Position numbers and translations under genes: made by a program. Shown piece after piece: positions 94 through 56,373 of a DNA stretch of 64,000 nt (positions within the stretch are counted from its first letter, which is position 1; every line of letters begins with the position of its first letter). A model generated the notes under the pieces. The model had not been told where the DNA came from and searched no databases. It worked only from the letters and a program-made list of their open reading frames with translations. Origin of the DNA: an uncultured Candidatus Saccharibacteria bacterium (GTDB lineage Bacteria; Patescibacteriota; Doudnabacteria; UBA920); NCBI GenBank assembly GCA_964434195.1, contig CAYSUI010000001.1:79833-143832 (forward strand), read 5' to 3'.

Positions 94-119
94 AATAAAA
101 AAGACACGGATTCGTGTCT
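94..119 (-). terminator. Rho-independent terminator after the 121..1011 gene
   Basis: Hairpin gacacg-gatt-cgtgtc (103-118) flanked by an A-run on plus strand, i.e. a T-run on the minus strand immediately after the stop at 121-123. Confidence 0.55.
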
Positions 120-120
120 G

Positions 121-1011
121 TTATTTTTCGTAGTTTTCGACGAACTTGGGTCGGCCTTTTTTGGGTAAGGCTGAATTCCCCAGTTTTTCGATAACGATTT
201 GCTCTAAAGCCAGAATGTAAGTGGCCGCGTCTTGCTTCTCTTTTTCTTGAGCGGAGATAGTTGCGTCGCGTTGCTTACACCCACCACACTGAACGTTCAC
301 GGTAACAAAATCTCTCTTGAGATGTGGGGTAATTGTCTGCCCAGAACTTGCTTTACCAATCCTCCTAACCCGCACCACACCAACAGGCTCGATTTTCTTG
401 GCTCGTTTGTGAACGTCGATATCTTCGTGGGGTTTTGCTGTTGGCACGACATAGCGACGATGGACATGGAAGTTTACAATTCTGTAGAAGTTTACTTTGT
501 CGTAAACAGAGTATTGACTACAGTAATCCCTGAAGATTGAGTTGTAGTCTTTCTTCCTCTCGTCTGAGTTATCTTGGTAGATCGAAACCTGCAAAGTCAT
601 ATAACTGAGCGCTTCGTCACCAATGAGTAAGAAAGTCTCTTTCTCGAACAAACTTACCAATAACTCCCACATTCCAAGCGTCTTGCCGTTTGGTAAGTCG
701 TAGTGGCTTAGGAAGTCGTCGAGAGAATTGAACTTGTAGTCAAGCCAAAAACTTCCACAGGTTTTGAGCTTATTAAATACGAATACGCTGTCGTACTTGT
801 ATGACAAACCTTTCTCTCTTTGCTTGAAAAGTTCGGCGAGTAAGTCTTTAACCTCACTCGGGAGCTTCATTCTGTCTAGCTCCAATGTGAATGGTGTTCG
901 CCTGAGTGAGAGCCTTAGCTTGTCTTGAGGTTTTTGGTCGGAATGAACAATTCCGGGGATTCCCGCTGACCTTCTTTTTTCCGCGAATACTGTGAATACT
1001 TGTGCTTCCAA
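121..1011 (-). CDS. hypothetical protein, no recognisable motif; higher GC than surroundings
   Basis: 296-aa ORF, 12 nt downstream of the co-directional 1024..2064 ORF, so likely an operon. Own terminator. No family recognised by eye. Confidence 0.5.
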   Translation of the reverse strand: MEAQVFTVFAEKRRSAGIPGIVHSDQKPQDKLRLSLRRTPFTLELDRMKLPSEVKDLLAELFKQREKGLSYKYDSVFVFNKLKTCGSFWLDYKFNSLDDFLSHYDLPNGKTLGMWELLVSLFEKETFLLIGDEALSYMTLQVSIYQDNSDERKKDYNSIFRDYCSQYSVYDKVNFYRIVNFHVHRRYVVPTAKPHEDIDVHKRAKKIEPVGVVRVRRIGKASSGQTITPHLKRDFVTVNVQCGGCKQRDATISAQEKEKQDAATYILALEQIVIEKLGNSALPKKGRPKFVENYEK

Positions 1012-1023
1012 TTTGATCTCCTT

Positions 1024-2064
1024 TTAGATTGCTTCGAGGTTGTGTTGTTTCAAGACTTTTAACCTGTCTTGGTTTTTTTTAGCGAGATATAACGTTATGG
1101 CTTTTTGGTGCTTACCGCACACATGCCACTGACTGGTTTCTTCTTTGCTTACTTCACACCCAGGCACTGCGCATTTGGTCTCAGTCCAGCCCTTACAGAA
1201 CCGTAAGAATTCTGGAGAGTATTTGGACTTACTGTCTGAATGGTACTGCTGGTAGAAATGTGCGTGTTTTCTTGTGCAGAAATAATTTTGTTGCTTCCCT
1301 ACCCTAACTTTGGGGATGTCGAATTCTTCCCCGCAGAGAGAACACCTTACTTCTACCCTACTTCCGGACTTTACTGCGAGCTCTTGTCGGTTTAAATTGT
1401 GAAGAGCTTTTTTTCTTGATTCAGAACGATTCCATTCCGTTTTTTTATGTAAGTCGCAAGCAATACAGAAAGTGTCCCAACTGTAATTTCTATGGTCTTC
1501 TAGTTCCATAGTTTTACCACAGGAAAGACAGAATTCCAGATCGACGACTTTGCCACCCAAAGTTTCCGCCTTTTCCCTGAGTTGCCTTAACCATAAATAG
1601 ACTGTTTCGAGGGTTGAGTCACAGTAAACTGCAATGTGACCGTTTGAAGAGAAGCAGAATTTACCGCTTCTGTGAATTGTAAAATCGAAAGTTAGAACCA
1701 GGAAATCTTCCAGTCTTTCAGGTGCATGGAAACTCGGTTTACAGACAATATTTCCGGAAGGGAATTTTCCGTAACGTGGTTTCCATAACTGTCCAAACAC
1801 TTCTGGGTTTTGTAGGTCGAGCCTTGAAAGCCGAAGCGTTGGCGCGTCGCTATAGGAGAGGAAATGCTGATTCCCTTGTTCGTCTACAACAATTATGGAA
1901 GGTGTGCTGTTGAAGAACGGGAGAATATTCAGAGCATCTGGATCGTTATCTGCATTAGCCCTGATTTCTTTAATAGTATCTTCCTTACCCTTAAGCAGTT
2001 TCCAGACAGCGACTTGATCACAGCCTGGTTCACCTAAGAGATAAACTTTAGTACTGTCATTCAT
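1024..2064 (-). CDS. hypothetical Cys-rich protein with multiple CxxC pairs (putative multi-zinc-ribbon)
   Basis: 346-aa ORF. Pairs CLSCG..CIAC, CSLCG..C, CAVPGC..CGKH suggest several Zn-ribbon modules. Higher GC by eye. No catalytic motif recognised. Confidence 0.5.
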   Translation of the reverse strand: MNDSTKVYLLGEPGCDQVAVWKLLKGKEDTIKEIRANADNDPDALNILPFFNSTPSIIVVDEQGNQHFLSYSDAPTLRLSRLDLQNPEVFGQLWKPRYGKFPSGNIVCKPSFHAPERLEDFLVLTFDFTIHRSGKFCFSSNGHIAVYCDSTLETVYLWLRQLREKAETLGGKVVDLEFCLSCGKTMELEDHRNYSWDTFCIACDLHKKTEWNRSESRKKALHNLNRQELAVKSGSRVEVRCSLCGEEFDIPKVRVGKQQNYFCTRKHAHFYQQYHSDSKSKYSPEFLRFCKGWTETKCAVPGCEVSKEETSQWHVCGKHQKAITLYLAKKNQDRLKVLKQHNLEAI

Positions 2065-3056
2065 AGATTACCCCCTTTTGAAATGCTTTGTATTTATACC
2101 CGTTTGTCTCGGAATTGTCTATAATAAACAAAAGACTCCGCTGATGGCGGAGCCTTGATTTCTATTTGATACCCCACTCACAAGTGTAAGGTAACAGGCA
2201 TACGCCTATAAACCTTAACTTGGTGCTAATAGCAATCAGTAGGAGGGATCATGACTGCTTTCGCGACTTGCAAGTAGGGTGCCAAATAGAAACTGTGTTA
2301 AAAAATTACCCTTGAATTTATACCTCATTTTACTCTGATTTTGCTTTTTTGTCAATACCCATAAAAAAATAGAGTAAATACTCTATAAAATAGCCAAAAA
2401 TAGCGGTCGAGCGGTTTTTATACCGAGGGGAGCCACCCCACCTAGAACACAGGCTTTTAGCGGCTTATTAGCCTAGCATCGAGCTCGAGCGTGCTGGTGC
2501 CTGCGTCACATCCTTTAGTAACTTCTAGAGCTCCACTCTCTATTGTCTAACAACTCACATGCAGTGAGGAAGTACTAATTTTATCGGTAATCATCCCTAC
2601 TAATTATTAGTTTGGCGCCTCCGTTAAATTTTATACGTCTCCTAAGGGAAATACACCTCACACAATGCGAGGCTTCGGTGCCTTGTTGTTATATACCGAA
2701 TTCAGGCTCCCTAAAAGGGAATAGATAATTAAAACCCGTAGCCGCAGCTTGGGTTTATGGCCTCTGTCTTAACCGACGGGATTCTCGACCACAACCATAT
2801 TATACCTTCAAGCAACGGGATTGTATATTTTACTCCATCTTTCGTATTTTTTTGCTCTTTTTTTCTCCACCGGAGGGAGCACCCTTTATACCAGAACCGG
2901 CAAAGCCGGATTCTCGATATAAAGGGTTCGCTATTTACCCTGCCGCGTACGCCTCCAAAAAAAAGAACAAAAGAAATACGAAATCTGAAGAAAAATCTGC
3001 AATCGAACTTATATGAATATTAGAGAGTTGCGAGTTTTTGGGGGTGAGGGTATTGT
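2065..3056. other. ORF-free, GC-richer ~1-kb region with recurring TTTATACC octamer and AT-rich tracts; candidate structured ncRNA and/or regulatory or iteron-like array
   Basis: No ORF >60 aa except a low-complexity 88-aa frame. Exact TTTATACC at 2093, 2317, 2417 and 2885, with variants at 2629, 2690 and 2799. AT-rich tracts at 2833-2872 and 2954-3003. Divergent genes on both sides. Confidence 0.3.
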
Positions 3057-4136
3057 TTGGGCATGGAAATGGATATTTACAGACATATATTATATAGAGT
3101 AAATGAGTGGCGAGGAGCAGTTTTGGAAAAACTCATCTCTAAATTCGGAAACGAGCTATCGGTTTTGAAGGCTGATAAAAAAGCTTTAGTAGATTTTGGA
3201 TTAAGTGAGTTACTGGCTATTAGAATATCGGATGCTTTATCTAAATTTGAACCTGAGACTGAGCAAAACTTACTTAATAATCAGGGAATAAAAATTTTAT
3301 CTCCAAGCAATCCCAACTTCCCAACCCTACTGAGACAAGTAGATGATTCACCTGGGATACTCTATTACCGTGGAGATATCTCTATTTTGAGCAAGAGGTG
3401 TTTATCCGTAGTTGGCTCAAGAAGAGTGAGTGGTTATGGGCAAAGTGCTATGCAGAAAATATTTCCTCAGGTTGTCAAAAGTGAAATTGTTACTGTATCT
3501 GGCCTAGCTTATGGTGTAGATGGATTAATCGCAAAAATAGCTGTTGAAAACAAATTTCCAACAGTAGCTGTACTCGGAGGAGGTATAGACAAAAATAGCA
3601 TTTATCCTAAAACTCATGTATTACTTTCGGAAAGGATAATAGAAAATTGTGGATGCTTAGTTTCTGAATACCCACCTGGTACTCCCCCGCTCCCCCATCA
3701 TTTCGTAGCCAGAAATAGAATAATAGCCGGACTAAGCGAAGCTACCTTAGTAGTTGAAGCAGCCCAGAAAAGTGGCTCTCTAATTACAACAGATTTTGCT
3801 TTAAGTAACGGGAGAGATGTTCTTGCTATACCGAGCCCAATTACTAATGAAAATTCCGAAGGCAGTAACAAACTCATAAAGGATGGTGCGCGTGTGGTGA
3901 CATGTGCTCAAGATATACTTGAGATATATGGTATAGTAGAATCACAAGAAAATTCGCATGTACTTAACAAAATAGAAAGCGAATTGTTTGAAATAATCTC
4001 TAATCAACCCACAGAAGTGGACACCTTAATAGAACAATCTGGTTATAACTTTTCGGAAGTGCTTACTACAATAACTAATTTGGAGTTAATAAAATTAATT
4101 AAAAAACTACCAACTGGCGAATATATAAAAGTATGA
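3057..4136 (+). CDS. dprA: DNA processing protein DprA (Smf)
   Basis: Rossmann-like DprA core (SVVGSRRVSGYG...GLAYGVDGLIAKIA...LIT). Track start is TTG. An ATG at 3063 is an alternative start. Confidence 0.75.
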   Translation: MGMEMDIYRHILYRVNEWRGAVLEKLISKFGNELSVLKADKKALVDFGLSELLAIRISDALSKFEPETEQNLLNNQGIKILSPSNPNFPTLLRQVDDSPGILYYRGDISILSKRCLSVVGSRRVSGYGQSAMQKIFPQVVKSEIVTVSGLAYGVDGLIAKIAVENKFPTVAVLGGGIDKNSIYPKTHVLLSERIIENCGCLVSEYPPGTPPLPHHFVARNRIIAGLSEATLVVEAAQKSGSLITTDFALSNGRDVLAIPSPITNENSEGSNKLIKDGARVVTCAQDILEIYGIVESQENSHVLNKIESELFEIISNQPTEVDTLIEQSGYNFSEVLTTITNLELIKLIKKLPTGEYIKV

Positions 4137-8006: not shown

Positions 8007-9231
8007 AATCGTTTCTGGAAAATATTTCATATTCGAATATTGTGAGCATTGCAGCCCTCCACCAACCAAGGAAGTCTTTAAAAAACCAAAAATGAGCACA
8101 CTGTTTTGCAAAATAAGCCAACCTACCTGTTACATACCAATTACCATGCTTCATGATCGCCCACTGCCCCCCGATCATTATGACGTACCCATGAGGGGGG
8201 CAATTATATGCTGGGGGTTTTTGATTTTTTAACAGTAGTGGAAATATTCTTCCTAGGTATTCTGCATGTCTTATTGCAGACTGCGCAGTGGGAGGACTAA
8301 CGATACCATCTTGAGAGGTGAAGCAACTATTATCACCAAGCACGTAGGCATTTGAATAATCTTTAATCTGAAAATATTCATTAACTTTTATACGCCCCTT
8401 AGGGTCAATCTCTGTTTTTTGCACTATTGGAACTTGAGTAGACTTAACCCCGGCTGCCCAAATGAGAACATCATAGGTCTCTCGTTCACCATTTTTAAGC
8501 TCAAAGATACCAGGATCCACTTTAGAAATCAGACTCATTAAGGAAATCCTAACCCCCAGATCTCTCAATCTTTCACTAGCGTCTCTGCTGAGCCTAGAAT
8601 CTAACCCAGGAATGAGCTCGCTGGCACCCTCGATAACCTGAATTTCAATTTTCTCTCTTGGAAAGCCATTTTTCCATGCAACATGATTAACTAGCTTTAC
8701 CAACTCGCCAGCGACCTCAACACCAGTATACCCACCCCCTGCCACTACAATCCTAACCAGCTTCTTCTTTACATCGCTTCTACCTCTTTGGACTGAAAAT
8801 TCCACTGCGTTTTTTATTCGTAACGCATCTTGGAAGGTTTTAAGAGGTAAAGCATTTTCTTTTGCTCCTGCAATTCCAAAGTATTCACTTTCTGAACCTA
8901 GAGCTAGGAAAATATGCTCATATTCAATACTCTTAGATTGCATACTTACTGTTTTCTTTTGTAAGTCTATGCTCTTAACCTCAGCTTCTATAAAATTTAC
9001 ACCTAAATTCTTAAGTACTTTTGAGAGACTAAACGAGACACTTTTTTTAAGATCTTCCTGTGTAACTAATTCTTCTTCGGCTGTGGCTACTTCGTATATT
9101 TCCGGTGTAAACAAAAAAAATTCGGTTCTGTTAACCAAAGTTATATCACTCCCCTTAAAAAACCTGGCTAGTCTTTTAGCCAGAGTAAGACCCGCAAAGC
9201 CCCCACCTATTATTAAATATTTGGTTTTCAT
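8005..9231 (-). CDS. type II NADH dehydrogenase-like FAD-dependent pyridine nucleotide-disulfide oxidoreductase
   Basis: Two dinucleotide-binding motifs: IIGGGFAGLTLA at the N-terminus and IVVAGGGYTGVEVAGE in the middle. NDH-2-like length of 408 aa. Confidence 0.75.
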   Translation of the reverse strand: MKTKYLIIGGGFAGLTLAKRLARFFKGSDITLVNRTEFFLFTPEIYEVATAEEELVTQEDLKKSVSFSLSKVLKNLGVNFIEAEVKSIDLQKKTVSMQSKSIEYEHIFLALGSESEYFGIAGAKENALPLKTFQDALRIKNAVEFSVQRGRSDVKKKLVRIVVAGGGYTGVEVAGELVKLVNHVAWKNGFPREKIEIQVIEGASELIPGLDSRLSRDASERLRDLGVRISLMSLISKVDPGIFELKNGERETYDVLIWAAGVKSTQVPIVQKTEIDPKGRIKVNEYFQIKDYSNAYVLGDNSCFTSQDGIVSPPTAQSAIRHAEYLGRIFPLLLKNQKPPAYNCPPHGYVIMIGGQWAIMKHGNWYVTGRLAYFAKQCAHFWFFKDFLGWWRAAMLTIFEYEIFSRND

Positions 9232-9259
9232 AGGTATTACTATATCTCCGAGAATAGGC

Positions 9260-9817
9260 TTACTTTAAACCTGATTCTGTTAAAGAGTGCCTACCTCCAG
9301 TGACACTTCCTGTTTTGTCGCTTACACAGAAAGTGATCGTATATTTATCGGTAGCTGAAGAGGTATAGACATAATCGTTCCAAGTAAAACTACCATTTGC
9401 CTCGCTACAACGCGAACCTGCTGGTAGAGAACCGTCATCTGCTGGCTTTGGAGAAGGCTGAAATTGAGCCAAATAGACTGTACCAGAGGCTACAGAGGTT
9501 AGACCTATACCACCGTTTGGAGAAACTCCATTACTTGTCCCGCAAGTTGTTGCCGTACCACTATATAAAGAAAGGCTACCACTTAATACAATGGGACCGG
9601 TTTGTGGAAAACCATTACACGTATTTTGATATAACGACAAAGCACTAGCTAGTTGAGTTACATCGCTTAATCTCTTTGCATTCCTGGCTTTAGTTCTCGA
9701 ATTCGAAAGCGCAACCAATACGACAGATGCGAGCAGGCCAATAATGGCAATAACTACTAAGAGTTCTATAAGTGTAAAACCTTTTGTGGAAAAATTTTGT
9801 TTCTTTAGACCTTGCAT
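9260..9817 (-). CDS. type IV pilin-like protein (prepilin with class III signal peptide)
   Basis: N-terminus KGFTLIELLVVIAIIGLLASVV is the canonical prepilin cleavage/methylation motif (G|FTLIE). Confidence 0.85.
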   Translation of the reverse strand: MQGLKKQNFSTKGFTLIELLVVIAIIGLLASVVLVALSNSRTKARNAKRLSDVTQLASALSLYQNTCNGFPQTGPIVLSGSLSLYSGTATTCGTSNGVSPNGGIGLTSVASGTVYLAQFQPSPKPADDGSLPAGSRCSEANGSFTWNDYVYTSSATDKYTITFCVSDKTGSVTGGRHSLTESGLK

Positions 9818-9940: not shown

Positions 9941-10573
9941 ATGAGTATGGGTTTTACGTTGCAGCAAGAACTTACACTGAAACATACTACTCGCCTTTCT
10001 GCCAAACTTCGTGCGGAAGTTGAGCAGGTTTTGAGTTTGCGACTTGGAATGCTTGTGGATGTGTGGCGAGAATACCGCTATGAACCAAGAGCAATTTGCC
10101 CGGGCTGTAGCCACCCGCTTACATTGGCTCAGATTGAAGCGGGTTTCTCTGATAGCCCCACAAACCATGCAGTGAAGTGTCCGTTGTGCAGCAGTCCGTT
10201 TTATGCGGAGCTGGTAAGCAAAACGAAGACCGGGCACATTGTAGCTGGGCATTATTATTGCAAACAGCAGACACTGCATGAGATTCGGGAACATTACGCA
10301 AAATCCCCTTCCGACTTTGAAGCAAAGATGAAGGATATATATCTATCTGCGCTTCGGCATTTTGGGAGTTTGAAAACCGCTTTTCGCCAGCTTGGTGTAA
10401 AGTATGGTTTTGCCGAAACCCCCAAATGGAAAGAAGTTGCTAGGGAATTTGTAGGGAAATTACCGGATACGGTTATCGCCAAAGAGCTGGAAGTACCGGC
10501 GAGAATTATTCGGCGGTTCCGTAACAGCCTTGGGGTTTCAAGGTTTGTGAAAAGCGATGCGCTTGAGAGTTAA
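9941..10573 (+). CDS. hypothetical protein with Zn-ribbon (CPGC..CPLC) and C-terminal HTH-like segment; higher GC
   Basis: 210-aa ORF. Two CxxC pairs. C-terminus KLPDTVIAKELEVPARIIRRFRNSLGV resembles an HTH. GC clearly above neighbours by eye. Confidence 0.5.
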   Translation: MSMGFTLQQELTLKHTTRLSAKLRAEVEQVLSLRLGMLVDVWREYRYEPRAICPGCSHPLTLAQIEAGFSDSPTNHAVKCPLCSSPFYAELVSKTKTGHIVAGHYYCKQQTLHEIREHYAKSPSDFEAKMKDIYLSALRHFGSLKTAFRQLGVKYGFAETPKWKEVAREFVGKLPDTVIAKELEVPARIIRRFRNSLGVSRFVKSDALES

Positions 10574-14876: not shown

Positions 14877-16285
14877 GTTATCGAAATATGAATAAACAAT
14901 CTCCCAAAGGTAGGAAGCGTATGCTTGAGGGCGTTCTTTCGAGCGTTGCAGAGTTTTTCTCTTTGCAAAGTGGAGAAAAAGTAAAAACAGGCATGAAGCA
15001 AAAACTTAAAGAAGGCCTTTGGCCGACTGGAGCATCGTACGGATACAAGAACGTGCGAGAAAAATTATCTACTGGTAAAGTGCGTTCTTGGGTGGAAATA
15101 AATTGGGAAGAAGCTAAATGGGTAATTCGAGCTTTTGAATTATTCGCTACGGGTAATTATTCCACCATATCTCTCGCCCAAATACTTCGCCAGGAAGGGT
15201 TTCCAGTAAGAAAATATAAGAGAGGGAATGACAAATTACATGCAAGCTTTATCGAAAGGCTTTTACGCAATAAGTTTTTTATAGGCATTATCGAATGGGA
15301 CGGCCTTGTTAATCCCAATGGTAAACATGAGCTCTTTTTAGACCGTCAACTTTTCGACAAAGTACAAAGTATCTTAGATATGCGTCTAGGTGGAGGTAGC
15401 AGAAAGCGTAAGCATTTTTCTATACTTAAAGGCCCTGCTTTCTGCCAAGAGTGCAATAGCAGGATTACAATGGATGTTAAAGAAACTACTACTCAAACTA
15501 TACGATACCTTCGTTGTTTGAAGTCACAAAATAGCGAGCGTGTTCAGTGCTCCCAGGAGTACCCCCATGAACTAGAGATTCTAAAGCAAGTAGACGAATT
15601 ACTTAGGCAAATAAAACTCAAAGATACCTTTGTTATAAAATTACGGAAACGTATTAGAAAAACGTTTGCCGATGAGCAGCAGGTTTATGAAAGAGCGCGA
15701 ATGGATATTTTGAATATAACAGAAGAAATAAAACGCAAGAAAAAGAATCTTGTTCTACAAATGATAAGCAAGGACAACGCTTCAACAGAAGACTTGGACA
15801 TATTTGCGAGCGTCCAAGACGAGCTTAATGTTGAAGAGAAGTACCTTAATGAACAACTGGAGAAAATTGAAAATAAAATTACCAGCGTGGTTAGAACGAT
15901 TCAGATTGCATTAGCTATCGCCACAGACTGCCATTATGCGTACAAAAAGGCTGAACCAGAATTGAAGGCTATGCTTATACAGACATTATTCAAAAAGATT
16001 TATATTCGGGACAAACAAATAACCCAAGTAGTTCTAAATGAACCCTTGGATTATTTGTGTCTAAAGAGGTTACAGAAAAACCCCGTATTCGATTTAACTT
16101 CAAATGGTGGGTCGAGTGGGGATCGAACCCACGACAAACGGCTTAAAAGGCCGCTGGCGCTATATACCTGGGATCCGGTAAACCGGCCCCAGGACGTGAA
16201 CAACGGCAAAGCCGCTGTTCACTCCCTAAAGGGGTATTCGCAGCGGCTTAAAATTTGTATCCAAAATTTTTACTTGGTGGGCTGA
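14858..16285 (+). pseudogene. large serine recombinase lacking the N-terminal catalytic (resolvase) domain
   Basis: Begins inside the alphaE region (VAEFFSLQSGEKVKTGMKQ) followed by the recombinase-domain motif GLWPTGASYGYKN, a Cys zinc ribbon (CQEC...C...C) and a coiled-coil. No catalytic Ser domain upstream. The 3' end reads through a tRNA-Lys fragment, so the true stop is unclear. Confidence 0.55.
16106..16156. repeat. 51-nt partial copy of the tRNA-Lys 3' half (att-like direct repeat)
   Basis: tggtgggtcgagtggggatcgaacccacgacaaacggcttaaaaggccgctg matches the 3' 51 nt of the tRNA-Lys gene at 16423-16473 with about 3 mismatches. Lies 267 bp distal to the intact tRNA. Confidence 0.75.
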
Positions 16286-16760: not shown

Positions 16761-17159
16761 TTATTTGTTTAGAGTCAGTCCGGTGGGGTTTGGGACATAG
16801 TACAGGGTGTAGACCCACCAGTGTTCTTTGTCGTGGAGGAGGTCTACGTTTATGTATGTACCACCGCCCAACTGATGGACTATCTTGTACCCATAAAGCG
16901 TGAAGTCGCCCTTTACCTTGTCTGTCTGTGGGACGCTTAGGTGGGCCATATACGTCTTAGGCAGGGATACGTAGGCGCTCATTGGGTAAATGCGGCTACT
17001 TTTCACGTCGGGGGTTTCTTTCTCGAATACCCTTACTAACTGCCAGACTTCGGGCGCTTCCGAGAGAATGGCTTTGTATAGAGCCATTTGAAAAGCTCCA
17101 CCGAGAAAACGAAGACCCATAAGTGTTGGAATGTTCAGTTGTTCCCAAGGTTTGATCAT
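16761..17159 (-). CDS. hypothetical protein; higher GC
   Basis: 132-aa ORF whose start overlaps the stop of the upstream lipoprotein gene by 4 nt (ATGA), so likely an operon. No motif recognised. Confidence 0.45.
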   Translation of the reverse strand: MIKPWEQLNIPTLMGLRFLGGAFQMALYKAILSEAPEVWQLVRVFEKETPDVKSSRIYPMSAYVSLPKTYMAHLSVPQTDKVKGDFTLYGYKIVHQLGGGTYINVDLLHDKEHWWVYTLYYVPNPTGLTLNK

Positions 17160-17881
17160 TTTGCCTCACTTACTGCTAATAGTAGTGGTTCGAGTTGGGG
17201 TTTTACTTCGTCCCAACTGTAGATGAGGCTTTTGTGGATGCGGATTTGGCCCTTGTGACCACCGTCTTCGAAGCCGTCGTAGGAATCAATTCCTGGTATG
17301 GCCAATACCTTATCCCAGTCCGGCTTAGCGGTGTTGGGAATATAGACGGTGTCTATTCGGCACTGAAACTGCGAGCCTTTCCAAGCATCGCAGTCGTTTG
17401 AGCTTGTGAGATTGTTGATGCCATGGGTCAGGCTTACCGGTTTGCCTAGCGTGCATTCGACGAATTTCTTGATTTCCGAAATTTCGGAATCAATTTTTTC
17501 TTTGTTAAGCACGTCGTCGTAATAGTCTACGAATAGACGATGTTTATACATATGCACCGAGGACACACCGGGACGCTTTGCGAGTTCGTCTGCCAAGTAC
17601 GAGGGTCCGGGAATGTAGACTTCGCTGTTTTGGAATGCTCCCGACACGCCCATGATATTGTTATGAAACTGTGTAGGCAAGGTGTCTCGGGTTTCTACCC
17701 AAAATCCACAGTACTTACGAGTATGGGCGTCTACAAAAGTACTCCACGCGACACTACCGAACGAAATAGTGCCCGGGCTTTGTTTTTGTTTGGTACATGA
17801 AGGTAGCCCCACAAATACCACACAAAGCACGACCACAAACTGAATTACCAGGTTTCTGGTTTTTTTCATTTCTTCCTCCAA
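17156..17881 (-). CDS. putative lipoprotein (hypothetical); higher GC
   Basis: N-terminal signal peptide with lipobox-like LPSC. 241 aa. GC about 50% by eye versus about 38% for core genes. Confidence 0.5.
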   Translation of the reverse strand: MEEEMKKTRNLVIQFVVVLCVVFVGLPSCTKQKQSPGTISFGSVAWSTFVDAHTRKYCGFWVETRDTLPTQFHNNIMGVSGAFQNSEVYIPGPSYLADELAKRPGVSSVHMYKHRLFVDYYDDVLNKEKIDSEISEIKKFVECTLGKPVSLTHGINNLTSSNDCDAWKGSQFQCRIDTVYIPNTAKPDWDKVLAIPGIDSYDGFEDGGHKGQIRIHKSLIYSWDEVKPQLEPLLLAVSEAK

Positions 17882-20962: not shown

Positions 20963-21775
20963 TTATTTTTCCTCTCTAAGTTGCCGTTCGATTTCAGAAG
21001 TTTGGAAAACTACCACTCTGTGGTCACCTCTATTCCCGTACACGTACATGCGCTTGACCATATTCTCGATGATCCAGACGCAAAACGCAATAATGCCGTA
21101 CCGAACACAGCTATACAAAGAGATGTAATGCAGAGTCCCAACGGCTTCCTTAAGTACTCGATGAGTTCTTTGGATGCGTTCTTGGAGGAATTCATACTCT
21201 TTCTGGAGCATTCCTAAAGCAATATCCTTTTCATTAAGAAGTGAAGAAGCTAAGCTCGCCTCCTGCTTTGCCTTAGAAAGCTCACGGCCATAACTCTTCT
21301 CAATCTGCTCTGGAGTAAGATCTTTTTCATCACCCAAGACCTCGACCCCAACATGACCAGCGTAAACCTCCATCAATAGGTTTACTAACTTCTCCTGAGC
21401 GATATGAGCACGCCATAACTTATCTCTTGAGACAAGCACAATGTGCCCGGTATTCTCGACCAGTATTTGCATATCTGAGCCGGGAATAAATTGCTCTTTC
21501 AGCCTGACAGGCTGACTGAGGTTATTACGGATAGGGATCAAGAAAGAACTCTCGTAATGTGGAAGTTTTCTACACGCTGAGTCCTGTGTAGTCACAAGCA
21601 ATAATTCAAGAGGCCGGGCCTCTGAAAGAATCATATGTGTTGATTCACCGCTTGTTATGAATGGGAGAGTTGAACCTAATACAACTAACCTACTCAAGGT
21701 AGCTGGGTAGTAGATAGTCGCGAATTTCCCTGACTCAGCATTTGCATAGACAGAAATCTCACCGTTTCGAATCAT
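20963..21775 (-). CDS. hypothetical protein; higher GC
   Basis: 270-aa ORF. C-terminal half is predicted helical and charged. No family recognised. Confidence 0.45.
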   Translation of the reverse strand: MIRNGEISVYANAESGKFATIYYPATLSRLVVLGSTLPFITSGESTHMILSEARPLELLLVTTQDSACRKLPHYESSFLIPIRNNLSQPVRLKEQFIPGSDMQILVENTGHIVLVSRDKLWRAHIAQEKLVNLLMEVYAGHVGVEVLGDEKDLTPEQIEKSYGRELSKAKQEASLASSLLNEKDIALGMLQKEYEFLQERIQRTHRVLKEAVGTLHYISLYSCVRYGIIAFCVWIIENMVKRMYVYGNRGDHRVVVFQTSEIERQLREEK

Positions 21776-21908: not shown

Positions 21909-22460
21909 TTATAATTCTCCATGATCCGAAATCTGCCGGCCTAGGATTATCAGATAGACTATTGGCAGGGTTAGCCAGACGAAGTTGGCTATTTGACCTA
22001 TAAACAAATAACTTATGAGCTGCGACAGCCTTCCTTGTGCTTCTATTGGGAGCAAGGTCAGAACAATGTTTATGAGTAAACCTATCTGGAAGAAGGCGAA
22101 AATTAACGTAAATATGAAACCTGAGACGTGTTTTCTATCCACCGTGGTCTTGAAGGCGTAGCGGGAAAGAAACAGGAACAGAAGCATAAAAAGAGCGGCG
22201 AAAGCAAGAAGATTCTCATAACCAACCAATGGACCCTTGAGGTGCTTTGCTAATTCCTGAGTCAGGAAAGGCGCTTCTAGAACCAAGAGTTTACTTATAT
22301 AGATACTAATAAGTATAGAAAGTACTCGACCTCGGCCTGCGGCAAATGCGTATAGCACACTTGCTACCCCCCAAAAAAGAAAAATAAAAAGGTCCCAACT
22401 TGGACTATGCCAGTTGAATTGTTTTATTAATGTTTCAATTTTATCTGCTTGGTCTCTCAT
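21909..22460 (-). CDS. integral membrane protein (hypothetical, CvpA-like topology)
   Basis: 183 aa with four or five TM helices. Weak resemblance to CvpA-type proteins; not confirmed. Confidence 0.4.
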   Translation of the reverse strand: MRDQADKIETLIKQFNWHSPSWDLFIFLFWGVASVLYAFAAGRGRVLSILISIYISKLLVLEAPFLTQELAKHLKGPLVGYENLLAFAALFMLLFLFLSRYAFKTTVDRKHVSGFIFTLIFAFFQIGLLINIVLTLLPIEAQGRLSQLISYLFIGQIANFVWLTLPIVYLIILGRQISDHGEL

Positions 22461-41975: not shown

Positions 41976-43727
41976 GTGAATTTACAAATTCATAATTCAA
42001 TAGATTATTTTCGAAAAGTTCCTAAAGGGATTCGAGAGATAAAAAGACTGAACCTTTCCACCCTGCGGAAAGTTTTTTCATTAATGGGTAAATATGAGCG
42101 AATCATATTTAGCGTACTTGTAATTACCGCAATATTATCTGCCTGGCTTGCTGCTAAGGGTTTTTATAATGAGCATACTGTACTCGCACCAAATTACGGT
42201 GGTACTTATAGAGAAGGTATGGTTGGTCAACCAAGACTTATAAACCCCGTCCTTGCTACTAGCAACGTAGATAACTCACTTGTTAGACTCATATATTCTG
42301 GACTTTACACTTACAACGAAAAAGGTGAATTAGTCCCTGACCTAGCTGTTGACCAACCCAAAATTTCAGAGGACCAGAAAGAATATACTGTAACAATAAG
42401 GCCAAATGCAAAATTTCATAACGATAGAGCGGTAACGGCTGATGATGTCATTTATACAATCAAAACCATCCAGGACCCGTCGTTTAAAAGCCCACTTAGG
42501 AGTGACTGGTTAAATACTACAGTAGAAAAAGTGAGCGAAAACGAGATTAGGTTCAAAAACAAGAATGTATCTGCTCCATTCTTAAATAATTTAACTTTGT
42601 CCATTTTACCTTCCAGAATTTGGAACCAGACATCGGCTGATAACTTTCCTTTGTCTGACGCAAACCTTAAACCCATTGGTAGCGGACCTTATTTAATTAG
42701 AGAAATAAATAAATTACCAAGCGGCGACGTTCAAAAAATTACCCTTGAAAGCTACAAAGACTATACCGGCGGTAAAGCTTTTATAGATAGAATTGTGGTA
42801 GTTTTTTATGAAAATCTAGATTCTGTTTATAAAGCATATAAGAGCGGTGAGGTCTCGGGCTTTGCTTATATACCATATACACAGAATGCAGAGGTTGAAG
42901 AAAAAATTAACACCAATAACTCTAGTGAATATATTCCCCTACCACAGTATCAAGCACTCTTCTTTAATGTGGAGAACAAAGTACTTTCTGATAAACAAAT
43001 AAGAAAAGCATTAAGGCAAGTTGTACCCAAGAAAGAAATTATTTCTAAGGCTTTTGACGGCCAGGCCAAGGAAATCAACATCCCTATCTTACCTGAACAA
43101 ATAGGCTACAAGGCTATTCCAGAACCTGTATCTGATATTACATCCGTAAACCTACTGCTCGATAATTTAGGTTATACAGTTAACGAGAATGGTATTCGTG
43201 CAAAAAAAGGACAACTCTTAGAATTTACTATTGTAACAAACGATACTCCTATAAATGTCAAAACGGCTGAACTGGTCGCCAATGAATGGAAAAAGCTAAA
43301 TATTAAAGTTAACGTCTCTACTATGCCTACTAGAGAACTAACCGAGAATTTCATTAGACCTAGAAGTTTTGATGTTCTTATTTTTGGACAAAAAAGCCTT
43401 GCAGATCCTGACCCCTTCGCTTACTGGCATAGTAGTCAAATTAAAGATCCGGGTCTCAATGTAAGCGGTTTTGCAAATAGCGAAGTAGACAGCTTAATCA
43501 CCGAGGCTAGAAGTACAATACTGCCAGAGATAAGACAAGATAGATATGAAAGATTTTTGGAAATATTAGATGAAGAATCCCCTGCCGTGTTTCTTAACCA
43601 AGGAGTATTGGTTTATTTAACGAACCCAGAAATCCACAGAGTAAATTTATCCGGTCTTTATGATATATCTTACAGATTTGACCAGATAAGCAAGTGGTAT
43701 ATAAAGGAAAAAAGAGTACTCAGGTAA
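41976..43727 (+). CDS. ABC transporter substrate-binding protein, family 5 (peptide/nickel-type), membrane-anchored
   Basis: N-terminal TM anchor. Bipartite family-5 solute-binding protein fold signature regions. 583 aa. Confidence 0.6.
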   Translation: MNLQIHNSIDYFRKVPKGIREIKRLNLSTLRKVFSLMGKYERIIFSVLVITAILSAWLAAKGFYNEHTVLAPNYGGTYREGMVGQPRLINPVLATSNVDNSLVRLIYSGLYTYNEKGELVPDLAVDQPKISEDQKEYTVTIRPNAKFHNDRAVTADDVIYTIKTIQDPSFKSPLRSDWLNTTVEKVSENEIRFKNKNVSAPFLNNLTLSILPSRIWNQTSADNFPLSDANLKPIGSGPYLIREINKLPSGDVQKITLESYKDYTGGKAFIDRIVVVFYENLDSVYKAYKSGEVSGFAYIPYTQNAEVEEKINTNNSSEYIPLPQYQALFFNVENKVLSDKQIRKALRQVVPKKEIISKAFDGQAKEINIPILPEQIGYKAIPEPVSDITSVNLLLDNLGYTVNENGIRAKKGQLLEFTIVTNDTPINVKTAELVANEWKKLNIKVNVSTMPTRELTENFIRPRSFDVLIFGQKSLADPDPFAYWHSSQIKDPGLNVSGFANSEVDSLITEARSTILPEIRQDRYERFLEILDEESPAVFLNQGVLVYLTNPEIHRVNLSGLYDISYRFDQISKWYIKEKRVLR

Positions 43728-55744: not shown

Positions 55745-55911
55745 AAGCTTTTAACACCTAGGGCCAAACTTCGACCCCAAAACTCTAACGTTCTCGCAAT
55801 ATACCATAAACTTTAATTACTAGGCAAGTAAAATATTATTGACACATCTTATAAAAATATTTATAATGCGAACTTAACATTCGCGTATAAACAATTTTGG
55901 AGGAGATGAAA

Positions 55912-56373
55912 ATGAAACAGTTTATTGTGAAAACGATCATGAAATCGATAATGGTGCTTGTTCAAATATTACCGTATTGTGGTTGGGTGTTCCTCATCTG
56001 CATGGCAATCTTTGGATATCTGGGGTTCATTTCGGACACACCGCATCGGTGGGCAGAACTTACTTTTTACAGCGGTGTGTGTGTTTACATTGCCAGCGCA
56101 TTGTTTACTTCTGCTGTCATGCTAACCATGACATACAAACATTGTTGTTTTGGGTTGAACACTTTTAAAAACCATTTTACCCATATGAAGAACACCGGAG
56201 AGGTTATCTCGGCTTCTATTTTCTGGCCTTTTTCCTGGCCACGAATTAGCAAAAATCTTAGCGGCTGGGGAATTTACTGGATTGATGAAGTTATATCCTG
56301 TGTTCTCTACTGGGTGGGTGACAGAAGAGTAGTAATACAAACCGAAACATTCAGCATAGACAATGAAAATTAG
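55912..56373 (+). CDS. membrane protein (hypothetical)
   Basis: ATG at 55912, 9 nt after GGAGG. Three or four TM helices. Confidence 0.45.
   Translation: MKQFIVKTIMKSIMVLVQILPYCGWVFLICMAIFGYLGFISDTPHRWAELTFYSGVCVYIASALFTSAVMLTMTYKHCCFGLNTFKNHFTHMKNTGEVISASIFWPFSWPRISKNLSGWGIYWIDEVISCVLYWVGDRRVVIQTETFSIDNEN

Follow-up and report, generated by a model that had tools for sequence, protein, structure and literature searches.

A conserved, unannotated gene pair encoding a zinc-finger protein and a helical partner in Candidatus Saccharibacteria

Genes A and B, which adjoin each other in a 64-kb stretch of Candidatus Saccharibacteria DNA (the window, analysed at its full length), are a conserved, unannotated gene pair. 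The pair recurs as a unit in unrelated neighbourhoods, and its behaviour as an accessory cassette is supported by the comparisons described below. We tentatively favor, with rather less than even confidence, the interpretation that A and B make up an accessory, mobile-element-derived, two-protein nucleic-acid-binding complex, probably with a regulatory role.

Organization of the A-B operon

Gene A (positions 1024..2064, minus strand, ATG start) encodes 346 amino acids, and gene B (121..1011, minus strand, TTG start) encodes 296. Both sets of coordinates, as well as the 12-nt gap between the two reading frames, agree with those given in a preliminary description of this DNA. The gap (1012..1023, minus strand) reads AAGGAGATCAAA on the coding strand and carries B's Shine-Dalgarno sequence, an AAGGAG ribosome-binding site 6 nt ahead of the TTG. 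Since this spacer is too short to accommodate a promoter or a terminator, A and B should be co-transcribed, and they are probably translationally coupled. At other loci, the spacing is 9-47 nt, or the genes overlap by 4 nt (L005 and L019). A terminator common to both genes had also been proposed, and one terminator-like hairpin was indeed located directly 3' of B's stop codon (102..119, both strands; AGACACG-AATC-CGTGTCT followed by a T-run). The hairpin, which follows B at 119->102, is also palindromic for the convergent pth and reads as a terminator in either direction, so that the two genes share it; pth is placed from the context of locus L001.

The proximal region upstream of A (2065..2121, minus strand) contains a possible promoter of A's own at 2121-2093, composed of TAGACA (2121-2116), a 17-nt spacer and TATAAA (2098-2093, within a GGTATAAA motif), and followed by GGGGG at 2075-2071 as the Shine-Dalgarno sequence. 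The promoter's -10 element does not end in the canonical T, and a consensus promoter scan did not call this promoter.

Selection, base composition and divergence

Comparison with a 95%-identical strain (L007) gave dN/dS values of 0.11 for A and 0.18 for B. These values, together with homologues that extend down to about 25% identity, establish that both are real genes under purifying selection. Divergence along the operon, in strain comparison, is mosaic, a pattern that would indicate a history of recombination.

The pair had been described as richer in G+C than its neighbors dprA and topA. This is true with respect to those two genes (42.5% for A and 44.2% for B, versus 36.8% for dprA and 38.1% for topA), but the overall GC of A-B lies inside the range of 1-kb windows over the 64 kb (33.5 to 46.6%), and z-scores among 44 long ORFs are about +0.9 for A and about +1.5 for B. 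The genuine signal comes from third positions. B has a GC3 of 0.508, where the 44 long ORFs average 0.343 +/- 0.065 (z +2.5, rank 2), and only one of these ORFs deviates more in codon usage; A has a GC3 of 0.418 (z +1.15) and ranks 10 of 44 in codon usage.

Family searches

A and B had been said to resemble no recognizable family, and database searches bear this out, since neither protein has a significant match in Pfam, PHROGs, PADLOC, NCBIfam or PDB sequences, and scans of their relatives against the first four of these yielded no above-threshold families for the pair. PADLOC was also blank for the protein P0005 and for the partner proteins at loci L013 and L018. No nuclease, NTPase or similar motif was found in A or B, and an HNH family match is absent from both; the sole HNH_3 match is in the protein encoded next to B at locus L005. 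Nothing related to A, to B or to the non-coding stretch upstream of A emerged from searches of 50,697 phage genomes, IMG/VR and JGI metagenomes.

Domains and zinc sites of protein A

Residues 1-170 of A form an N-terminal alpha/beta domain of a type that was not recognised. Reading this domain as a PD-(D/E)xK, RuvC or HNH nuclease was rejected, because the candidate acidic and His residues are not conserved in the L015 homologue and an HNH motif is absent. The remainder of the protein is organized around Cys residues, which had been taken as at least four CxxC pairs forming multiple zinc ribbons. We count three strict pairs (C179/C182, C200/C203 and C241/C244), plus C298-x4-C303 and C316-x2-H319; there are indeed multiple predicted zinc sites, three in number, but only one is a classical ribbon, and the others are finger types. 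The ribbon (C179-x2-C182...C200-x2-C203) is followed by a long helix predicted at about residues 201-232, a TRASH/FCS-type finger (C241-x2-C244-x18-C263-x3-H267, with C-x3-C at the final pair in relatives), a conserved YSPxxLR motif, a C298-x4-C303-x12-C316-x2-H319 finger and a C-terminal helix. All Cys residues of the three sites are invariant in alignments of alpha/beta-type homologues with 27-30% identity.

Residues 241-267 fit the zf-FCS/TRASH Cys pattern C-x2-C-x(17-22)-C-x3-C with its F-C-S signature, and relatives have FCS..C at the same position. Consistent with this, members of the A family scored best against zf-FCS (E=0.0038) and zf-FLZ (E=0.0055) among Pfam models, in both cases under the gathering threshold, and a PDB profile search with A weakly matched eL24 fingers and nothing else (best E=0.002, range 0.002-0.02). 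The AF2 model of A is poor (pLDDT 54.8). In its Cys pattern, C-x2-C-x18-C-x3-(C/H), in F-C-S/T and in the aromatic residue that follows, A resembles TRASH, zf-FCS (MYM-type) and eL24 fingers, families for which neither the architecture around the finger nor an obligate B partner has been described.

A second likeness concerns A's last finger. Phage HNH nickases carry or adjoin zinc-ribbon modules built of [CxxxxC] and [CxxH] or [CxxC] knuckles, fused to or beside a nuclease and a DNA-recognition protein (Xu and Gupta, 2013; PMC3592412). The C-x4-C...C-x2-H finger of A resembles these modules by pattern rather than by significant alignment, and a finger of this kind also occurs in the L005 partner of B, which is an HNH_3 endonuclease. 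Unlike the phage proteins, A has no HNH motif, no sequence match to a phage protein and no terminase genes nearby.

Features of protein B

The N-terminus of B is disordered and bears a conserved K-L-x-L-x-L-R motif. It is followed by a helical core (residues 41-186) that includes an HTH-like segment at residues 96-121 (SLDDFLSHYDLPNGKTLGMWELLVSLF) and the conserved motifs LFDKETF-L-GD and RK-DYQ-IFD-YC, and then by a short beta region, a CxxC (C242/C245), a long C-terminal helix and LP-x-RP. The preliminary description had B ending in a basic, helix-rich segment, and the model accordingly places a helix at residues 243-277, ahead of a terminal ...PKKGRPKF.

The AlphaFold model of B is poor, and its best structural neighbors, all weak matches, were ECF sigma factors, with Spo0J also weakly matched. 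Identification of B as a sigma factor is not supported by profile comparisons, since none of 46 B-family members matched Sigma70_r2 or Sigma70_r4 at E<0.01, and alignment of B with two ECF sigma factors by hhalign gave probabilities of 0.2-1.1%. A small terminase ranked sixth in a BFVD structure search (E=1.9), but B resembles solved small terminases neither in sequence nor in fold, its PDB sequence-profile search was empty, and no large terminase, portal or capsid gene was present near copies of the pair in all loci examined, so that neighbors, sequence and fold all fail to support this assignment. B does resemble the ParB/Spo0J HTH proteins and small terminases in the layout of its helical core, where additional helices come after an HTH, and putatively in oligomerisation by C-terminal helices, but it lacks the ParB N-terminal CTPase box and any sequence similarity to ParB, and its chromosomal loci have no parA/parS partner.

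Homologues and genomic contexts

The B family comprises 69 clusters among 1.84 billion representative proteins, mostly of 250-310 amino acids and with strongly conserved motifs. At every locus with upstream sequence, B is immediately preceded by a gene for a Cys-rich zinc-finger protein, and in 8 of 10 distinct arrangements this partner carries A's C-terminal module, defined as the TRASH/FCS-type finger, YSPxxLR, the C-x4-C...C-x2-H finger and the helix. An HMM of A recognized this preceding gene in L004, L006, L007, L008-10, L013, L015, L016/17 and L018, always through HMM positions ~235-345, and hhalign aligned A with the L013 partner at 98% probability. At L019 the partner is a 183-aa, multi-CxxC protein, and at L020 the ORF upstream of B ends like A. 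The N-terminus of the partner is swappable. It consists of the alpha/beta domain and zinc ribbon in the window, of tandem FCS-type fingers elsewhere (4-6 TRASH/FCS-type copies in L013, L016 and L018) and of an HNH_3 nuclease domain in L005, a phage/plasmid-like contig in which B follows the HNH_3 gene with a 4-nt overlap. By eye, an FCS-like finger can be made out near the N-terminus of the encoded HNH_3 protein and a C-x4-C...C-x2-H finger near its C-terminus; the protein's phage relatives are annotated only as HNH endonucleases.

Copies of the pair were found in Candidatus Saccharibacteria MAGs, in unclassified metagenome contigs and in the one phage/plasmid-like contig; two GTDB species representatives had a match in a search of limited sensitivity. 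At least six different genomic contexts were observed. In the window strain, the pair lies between pth and dprA among housekeeping neighbors, and in L006 the gene after B differs from that in the window strain. Elsewhere the pair is located between tRNA-Ile and tRNA-Ala beside type IV pilus genes (L004), beside ProRS and a divergently oriented ECF sigma gene (L015), or beside PEPCK and DeoC (L018).

We infer from these contexts that A-B was acquired horizontally, as the preliminary description had suggested. The unrelated neighborhoods, B's atypical codon usage and the mosaic divergence favor that suggestion, but no integrase or recombinase gene was found near the pair in the window, and no convincing att duplication or terminal repeats border it in the window or in L004, where the only candidates were terminator look-alikes. 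A phage derivation, also raised previously, finds a counterpart in the B homologue on the phage/plasmid-like contig but not in the 50,697 phage genomes; since searches of phage genomes, IMG/VR and JGI metagenomes yielded no homologue, the case for mobile or phage ancestry is drawn from that contig and from the variability of context. The further suggestion of a defence-like module was not upheld, there being no PADLOC match and no nuclease or NTPase motif.

The adjacent non-coding block

A 765-nt non-coding block (2065..2830, minus strand) accompanies A-B in the window, L007 and L006. It differs by 1.4-1.7% between strains, versus a dS of 0.37-0.51 in the flanking part of A, and evolves 20-30 times slower than neighboring synonymous sites. 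Co-occurrence of the pair with the element at 2065-3056 holds for these close relatives, but distant A-B loci have no similar upstream sequence, and we treat the link between the block and A-B as an association only.

Directly upstream of A, the block contains a promoter-to-terminator unit (2122..2355, minus strand). Its promoter, TTGACA-17-TAAAAT at 2355-2327, matches 11 of 12 consensus positions, and would yield an RNA of ~200 nt (2320-2122) that ends in a 10-bp terminator stem (2156-2132) and a U-run. This RNA folds strongly (MFE -74.5 kcal/mol, z = -7.9 versus shuffles), and only two substitutions occur in its folded part, each either located in a loop or turning A-U pairing into G-U. The unit may encode a small RNA in its own right, or it may act as an attenuating leader for the A-B operon. 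In an Rfam search, only tRNAs elsewhere in the window reached the gathering score, and region 1950-3150 had no credible match at E<=10.

Seven GGTATAAA-like copies lie in this adjacent region, all on the operon's strand, and a stretch of ~800 nt accounts for 5 of the 11 exact GGTATAWA matches found over the 64 kb. No common -35 element was found upstream of the GGTATAAA copies. One GGTATATA copy is located ~38 nt upstream of a tRNA-Leu gene, and for this reason the motif may be an ordinary strong -10 element of the organism. A replication origin or iteron reading of the cluster was rejected because the spacing is irregular (60-224 nt), there is no dnaA context, and no skew turning point occurs at 2-3 kb. 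It is conceivable, though we consider it improbable, that the promoter-dense RNA locus and A-B are one mobile unit, which could then be a new ribonucleoprotein, or a sigma-like transcription module whose zinc-finger/HTH complex would drive or bind several small structured RNAs peculiar to Saccharibacteria.

Discussion

We propose that A-B is the local copy of a small, unannotated family of two-gene cassettes, and that, as the gene order suggests, the two proteins would join in one nucleic-acid-binding complex. In that complex, B would recognize specific DNA sequences by means of its HTH-like helical core and would self-associate through its CxxC and long C-terminal helix, and A would dock by its conserved C-terminal fingers and bear a variable 'output' domain. 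The cassette would be of mobile-element descent and most likely a transcriptional or DNA-targeting regulator, with the neighboring promoter-dense, ultra-conserved RNA locus that moves along with it as a plausible target in this lineage. Against this proposal, neither A nor B significantly matches any DNA-binding family among Pfam and PDB profiles, and binding to RNA, proteins or metals is likewise known for fingers of the TRASH and zinc-ribbon types.

In one alternative, A and B would be protein components of the neighboring small RNAs or would help to process or chaperone them, with the zinc ribbons and eL24-like finger of A binding RNA and the beta region of B serving as a TRAM/OB-like RNA-binding element. 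The eL24-type finger is an rRNA-binding fold, residues 185-265 of B show a weak similarity to the TRAM/Fe-S region of RlmD (E=1.8e-4, well short of the family cut-off), the extremely constrained block with its RNA unit travels jointly with A-B in L006 and L007, and the L004 copy is flanked by tRNA genes. We nevertheless regard this alternative as unlikely, given that distant loci lack a related upstream RNA, that these matches are beneath every curated threshold, and that B's conserved core resembles an HTH rather than a known RNA-binding fold. Somewhat less likely still is a remnant of phage DNA recognition and packaging, with A as the zinc-ribbon protein of an HNH nickase, B as a small terminase-like subunit and the chromosomal copies domesticated or satellite-like. 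The order of a zinc-ribbon protein/HNH gene and then a small terminase gene is documented (PMC3592412). In L005 B comes after an HNH_3 gene, B's N-proximal HTH-like part and long C-terminal helix are arranged as in small terminases, and a small terminase did appear in BFVD, though with a poor E value. Set against these are the empty PDB profile search, the lack of large terminase, portal or capsid genes beside any copy, and the bare HNH endonuclease annotation of the phage relatives of the L005 protein. HNH_3 endonucleases are usually free-standing, homing-type enzymes that are not linked to terminases.

Metal handling offers a different view of the Cys clusters. TRASH domains were first proposed as metal-sensing or metal-trafficking modules, and the pair could be a lineage-specific housekeeping system for Zn/Cu trafficking that is not mobile, its contexts arising by ordinary genome shuffling. 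Strong purifying selection and the absence of mobility genes nearby accord with this, but we find it improbable in view of the family's small size (just 69 clusters), its presence in only two GTDB species representatives by a search of limited sensitivity, the phage/plasmid-like copy and B's outlying codon usage. We give even less credence to the idea that B might be a very divergent ECF-type sigma factor or sigma mimic, redirecting RNA polymerase, with A as a zinc-dependent modulator analogous to an anti-sigma factor. The two-gene layout, pairing a helical HTH-containing protein with a Cys-rich zinc protein, the motif copies clustered on the operon strand and the ECF sigma gene divergently adjoining the L015 pair would suit such a system. 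However, B is ~100 aa longer than ECF sigma factors and has a CxxC and long C-terminal helix; A greatly exceeds a zinc-binding anti-sigma (ZAS) domain in size and does not have its HxxxCxxC motif; the A-B order puts the zinc protein first; and the negative profile comparisons, the lack of a consistent -35 element and the tRNA-Leu copy of the motif all weigh against it. Similarly far down the scale of probability is a module of the defence or toxin-antitoxin-like kind, in which the N-terminal domain of A would be the effector. The pair's accessory distribution, variable context, swappable N-terminus (an HNH nuclease in L005) and atypical composition speak for one, but PADLOC is blank and no defence genes adjoin the pair, no catalytic residues are conserved across the aligned alpha/beta domains (H67, H113 and D149 are not shared by L015), and both proteins are large for a toxin-antitoxin pair.

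Saccharibacteria and other CPR genomes are tiny, and a large share of their genes is unannotated. Here, two 'hypothetical proteins' become a testable, recurring cassette, in which a zinc-finger partner with a swappable N-terminus accompanies a conserved helical protein. Should the pair prove to be no more than a DNA-binding regulator confined to its lineage, the finding is ordinary. As a mobile-derived module for DNA targeting or transcription, it would rank among the few regulatory or mobile-element systems described for the phylum. Its physical linkage to a slow-evolving non-coding block points to an unrecognised RNA locus.

Operon Organization and Composition

Two ORFs lie on the minus strand, both at exactly the coordinates given in the preliminary description. 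Gene A (1024-2064) starts with ATG and encodes a 346-aa zinc-finger protein, and gene B (121-1011) starts with TTG and encodes a 296-aa helical partner. The 12-nt spacer between them reads AAGGAGATCAAA on the coding strand, and therefore supplies a strong Shine-Dalgarno sequence for B and leaves no room for a separate B promoter. Directly 3' of the B stop codon, a terminator-like hairpin (119 to 102, then a T-run) reads as a terminator for the convergent pth gene as well. Compared with a 95% identical strain (L007), dN/dS was 0.11 for A and 0.18 for B. A and B are real genes forming a conserved pair.

The operon had also been described as higher in G+C than the neighboring dprA and topA. Its composition is less unusual than thought, with both 1-kb windows over A and B at 42.4% GC (64-kb range, 33.5 to 46.6%), but B is a true third-position outlier (GC3 0.508, compared with 0.343 ± 0.065; rank 2 among 44 long ORFs) and has the second most deviant codon usage of the 44, while A is only mildly high (GC3 0.418; codon-usage rank 10). 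EF-P excepted, the remaining high-GC3 genes of the window are orphans without Pfam domains; atypical composition and orphan status coincide in this genome. High GC3 or deviant codon usage was also seen in ORFs at 9941-10573, 20963-21775, 21909-22460 and 55897-56373, none with a Pfam domain. The most codon-atypical gene of the window is an orphan at 17156-17881 (minus strand, GC3 0.52), likewise without a Pfam domain. Near it, and ∼250 nt from tRNA-Lys, lies a 62-nt tRNA-like fragment (16108-16169, minus strand), detected by Rfam only (33 bits) and not called by ARAGORN; fragment and orphan may be another small acquired segment.

Proteins A and B and Their Family

Protein A begins with an alpha/beta domain of ∼170 aa that had no match anywhere, and that retains no obvious catalytic residues once the alignment takes in the homologous locus L015. 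This domain is followed by a classical zinc ribbon (C179/C182...C200/C203) and a helix. A second finger, C-x2-C-x18-C-x3-C/H with an F-C-S/T signature, has the TRASH/zf-FCS/eL24 pattern, for which profile support was weak (eL24, E = 0.002; zf-FCS, E = 0.004). The C-terminal part comprises a conserved YSPxxLR, the finger C298-x4-C303-x12-C316-x2-H319 and a last helix. Where at least four CxxC pairs had been counted in A, three are strict, and C-x4-C and C-x2-H pairs are additional.

The N-terminus of B is disordered and bears a KLxLxLR motif. The AlphaFold models of A and B are both poor. The helical core of B (aa 41-186) has a pLDDT of ∼70-80, and the models allow no more than the reading that this core resembles small helical DNA-binding domains. 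The strongest family motifs lie in this core (F/Y-W..FG; s.dE.La..dLP.G.TLa.We..V.LFdkeTF.L.Gd..L..M; RK.DYQ.IFD.YC....FDK). The segment SLDDFLSHYDLPNGKTL has a classical helix-turn-helix pattern, and is the sole piece of B that hhalign paired, without significance, with the sigma-4 HTH of two ECF sigmas. After the core come a short beta region, a CxxC (kept in 37 of 46 family members), a long helix and LP.RP.

In 5.8 billion proteins searched by word index, A retrieved only itself, and B retrieved four relatives (96-35% identity). Against 1.84 billion cluster representatives, the B profile matched 69 clusters, mostly of 250-310 aa, none of which is named in its source, and no Pfam family recurred among the scanned members. 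The pair occurs in two GTDB genomes, both "uncultured Candidatus Saccharibacteria" MAGs; contigs of other family members have 35-63% GC. Gene neighborhoods were obtained for 12 B homologues. An HMM of A matched the gene directly upstream of B in L004, L006, L007, L008-10, L013, L015, L016/17 and L018, always via the C-terminal part of A (HMM positions ∼235-345), and hhalign of A with the L013 partner gave 98% probability. In L019 the 183-aa partner consists of CxxC pairs, and its gene overlaps B by 4 nt; in L020 a truncated ORF upstream of B has an end resembling that of A. In L005 (ERR2709736_69, 8161-9497), a 51% GC phage/plasmid-like contig with ParA, IstB-like, phage metallopeptidase, DUF5131, EVE and SNF2 genes, the upstream gene encodes an HNH_3 endonuclease, also with a 4-nt overlap. 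By eye, this endonuclease has an FCS-like finger N-terminally and a C-x4-C...C-x2-H finger C-terminally; hhalign gave no statistical support for the resemblance. HNH_3 relatives occur frequently among actinobacterial and Pseudomonas phages. The partner survey indicates that the invariant unit is B plus a zinc-finger partner, which is, by sequence comparison, conserved in its C-terminal part and exchangeable in its N-terminal part.

Genomic Contexts and Mosaic Divergence

The A-B pair was found in at least six unrelated contexts. In the window, L001, L002 and L007, the order is pth, B, A, the non-coding block, then dprA, PGA_cap and topA. In L004 (MAG CAYRJC010000031.1), the pair sits between tRNA-Ile(GAT) (1447-1523) and tRNA-Ala(TGC) (4010-4085), and type IV pilus genes adjoin; a similar terminator follows each tRNA gene, and a 58-aa ORF (3931-4107) overlapping the tRNA-Ala gene is probably spurious. 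Elsewhere the pair adjoins ECF sigma and ProRS genes (L015), PEPCK and DeoC genes (L018), or C39 peptidase and cold-shock genes (L013), and in L006 the gene after B encodes an unrelated membrane protein and is absent from the window.

Aligned with L006, the stretch 2065-2830 is 98.3% identical at the nucleotide level and A codons 1-210 are 88.6% identical, whereas the remainder of A, like the whole of B, is only ∼65% identical. The step is sharp and falls at ∼1435 (A codon ∼210), where the N-terminal domain and ribbon give way to the conserved C-terminal finger module. Such mosaic divergence implies a recombination breakpoint within gene A. Searches of 50,697 phage genomes, IMG/VR and JGI metagenomes returned no relative. 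The proposal of a horizontally acquired module fits the atypical codon usage of B, the varied contexts and the mosaic. Nothing that would delimit an island was found, neither an integrase gene nor an att duplication nor terminal repeats. A-B is an accessory cassette, probably with a mobile element in its ancestry, and we infer that it reached the window site horizontally.

The Adjoining Non-Coding Region

The block at 2065-2830, upstream of A, differs from L007 by 11 substitutions and from L006 by 13 (98.3-98.6% identity), whereas the adjoining part of A shows dS values of 0.37 and 0.51, respectively; the block thus evolves ∼20-30 times slower than neighboring neutral sites. Rfam gave no match for the block, and the rest of the window contains no counterpart; it probably represents one or more unrecognized structured RNAs. 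On the minus (operon's) strand, TATACA-17-TATAAT lies at 2827-2799, and a TTGACA-17-TAAAAT promoter (2355-2327) precedes a ∼200-nt RNA directly upstream of A, ended by a strong 10-bp terminator (2156-2132). This RNA folds as a long extended hairpin (MFE -74.5 kcal/mol, z = -7.9), and just two substitutions fall in the folded part, either in a loop or changing an A-U pair to G-U. The 2122-2355 unit either encodes a small RNA of its own or serves the operon as an attenuating leader.

Seven GGTATAAA-like copies, all on the operon's (minus) strand, are clustered within ∼800 nt (2093-2892), which holds 5 of the 11 exact GGTATAWA occurrences in the 64-kb window. Several have short GC-rich hairpins just before them. 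A further copy (43696-43703, plus strand) lies ∼38 nt upstream of tRNA-Leu(CAG), and the motif may therefore be a strong stable-RNA promoter element.

Co-occurrence with the 2065-3056 element, raised in the preliminary description, held in part: block 2065-2830 accompanies A-B in three related strains, among them L006 with its different far flank, but distant A-B loci lack a counterpart. The association is thus genuine, though confined to this lineage. In L007, the dprA-proximal part (2831-3056) has either been replaced or diverged (78.7% identity, with indels), and the window's strain carries a 46-nt imperfect inverted repeat (2819-2864/2959-3004).

Discussion

Gene order is conserved, the two genes are coupled, the finger patterns recur and the contexts vary. 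Our best reading, held tentatively, is that A and B form a single nucleic-acid-binding complex with a transcriptional or DNA-targeting regulatory role. B would supply sequence-specific DNA binding and self-association, and A would dock via its conserved C-terminal fingers, adding a variable N-terminal domain; complex formation, DNA binding and regulation, the likely role, are all putative.

That A-B is instead an RNA-binding pair tied to the neighboring RNAs seems rather unlikely; the block travels with the pair in related strains but not in distant loci. Less likely than this is descent from the ZR-protein/HNH-small-terminase arrangement that Xu & Gupta (PMC3592412) described in phages, of which A-B would be a remnant, and less likely again are lineage-specific housekeeping or metal-handling proteins. 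Least probable, and equally so, are a defense or toxin-antitoxin module and a sigma-like B with A as its zinc partner, the latter opposed by the non-significance of the hhalign pairing.

In sum, A and B make up a genuine two-gene cassette that is conserved but unannotated. Known kinds of parts (zinc ribbons, a TRASH/FCS finger and a helical protein of HTH-like type) are combined in it in a way not described before, and the adjoining ultra-conserved RNA locus is arguably more striking than the A-B pair itself.
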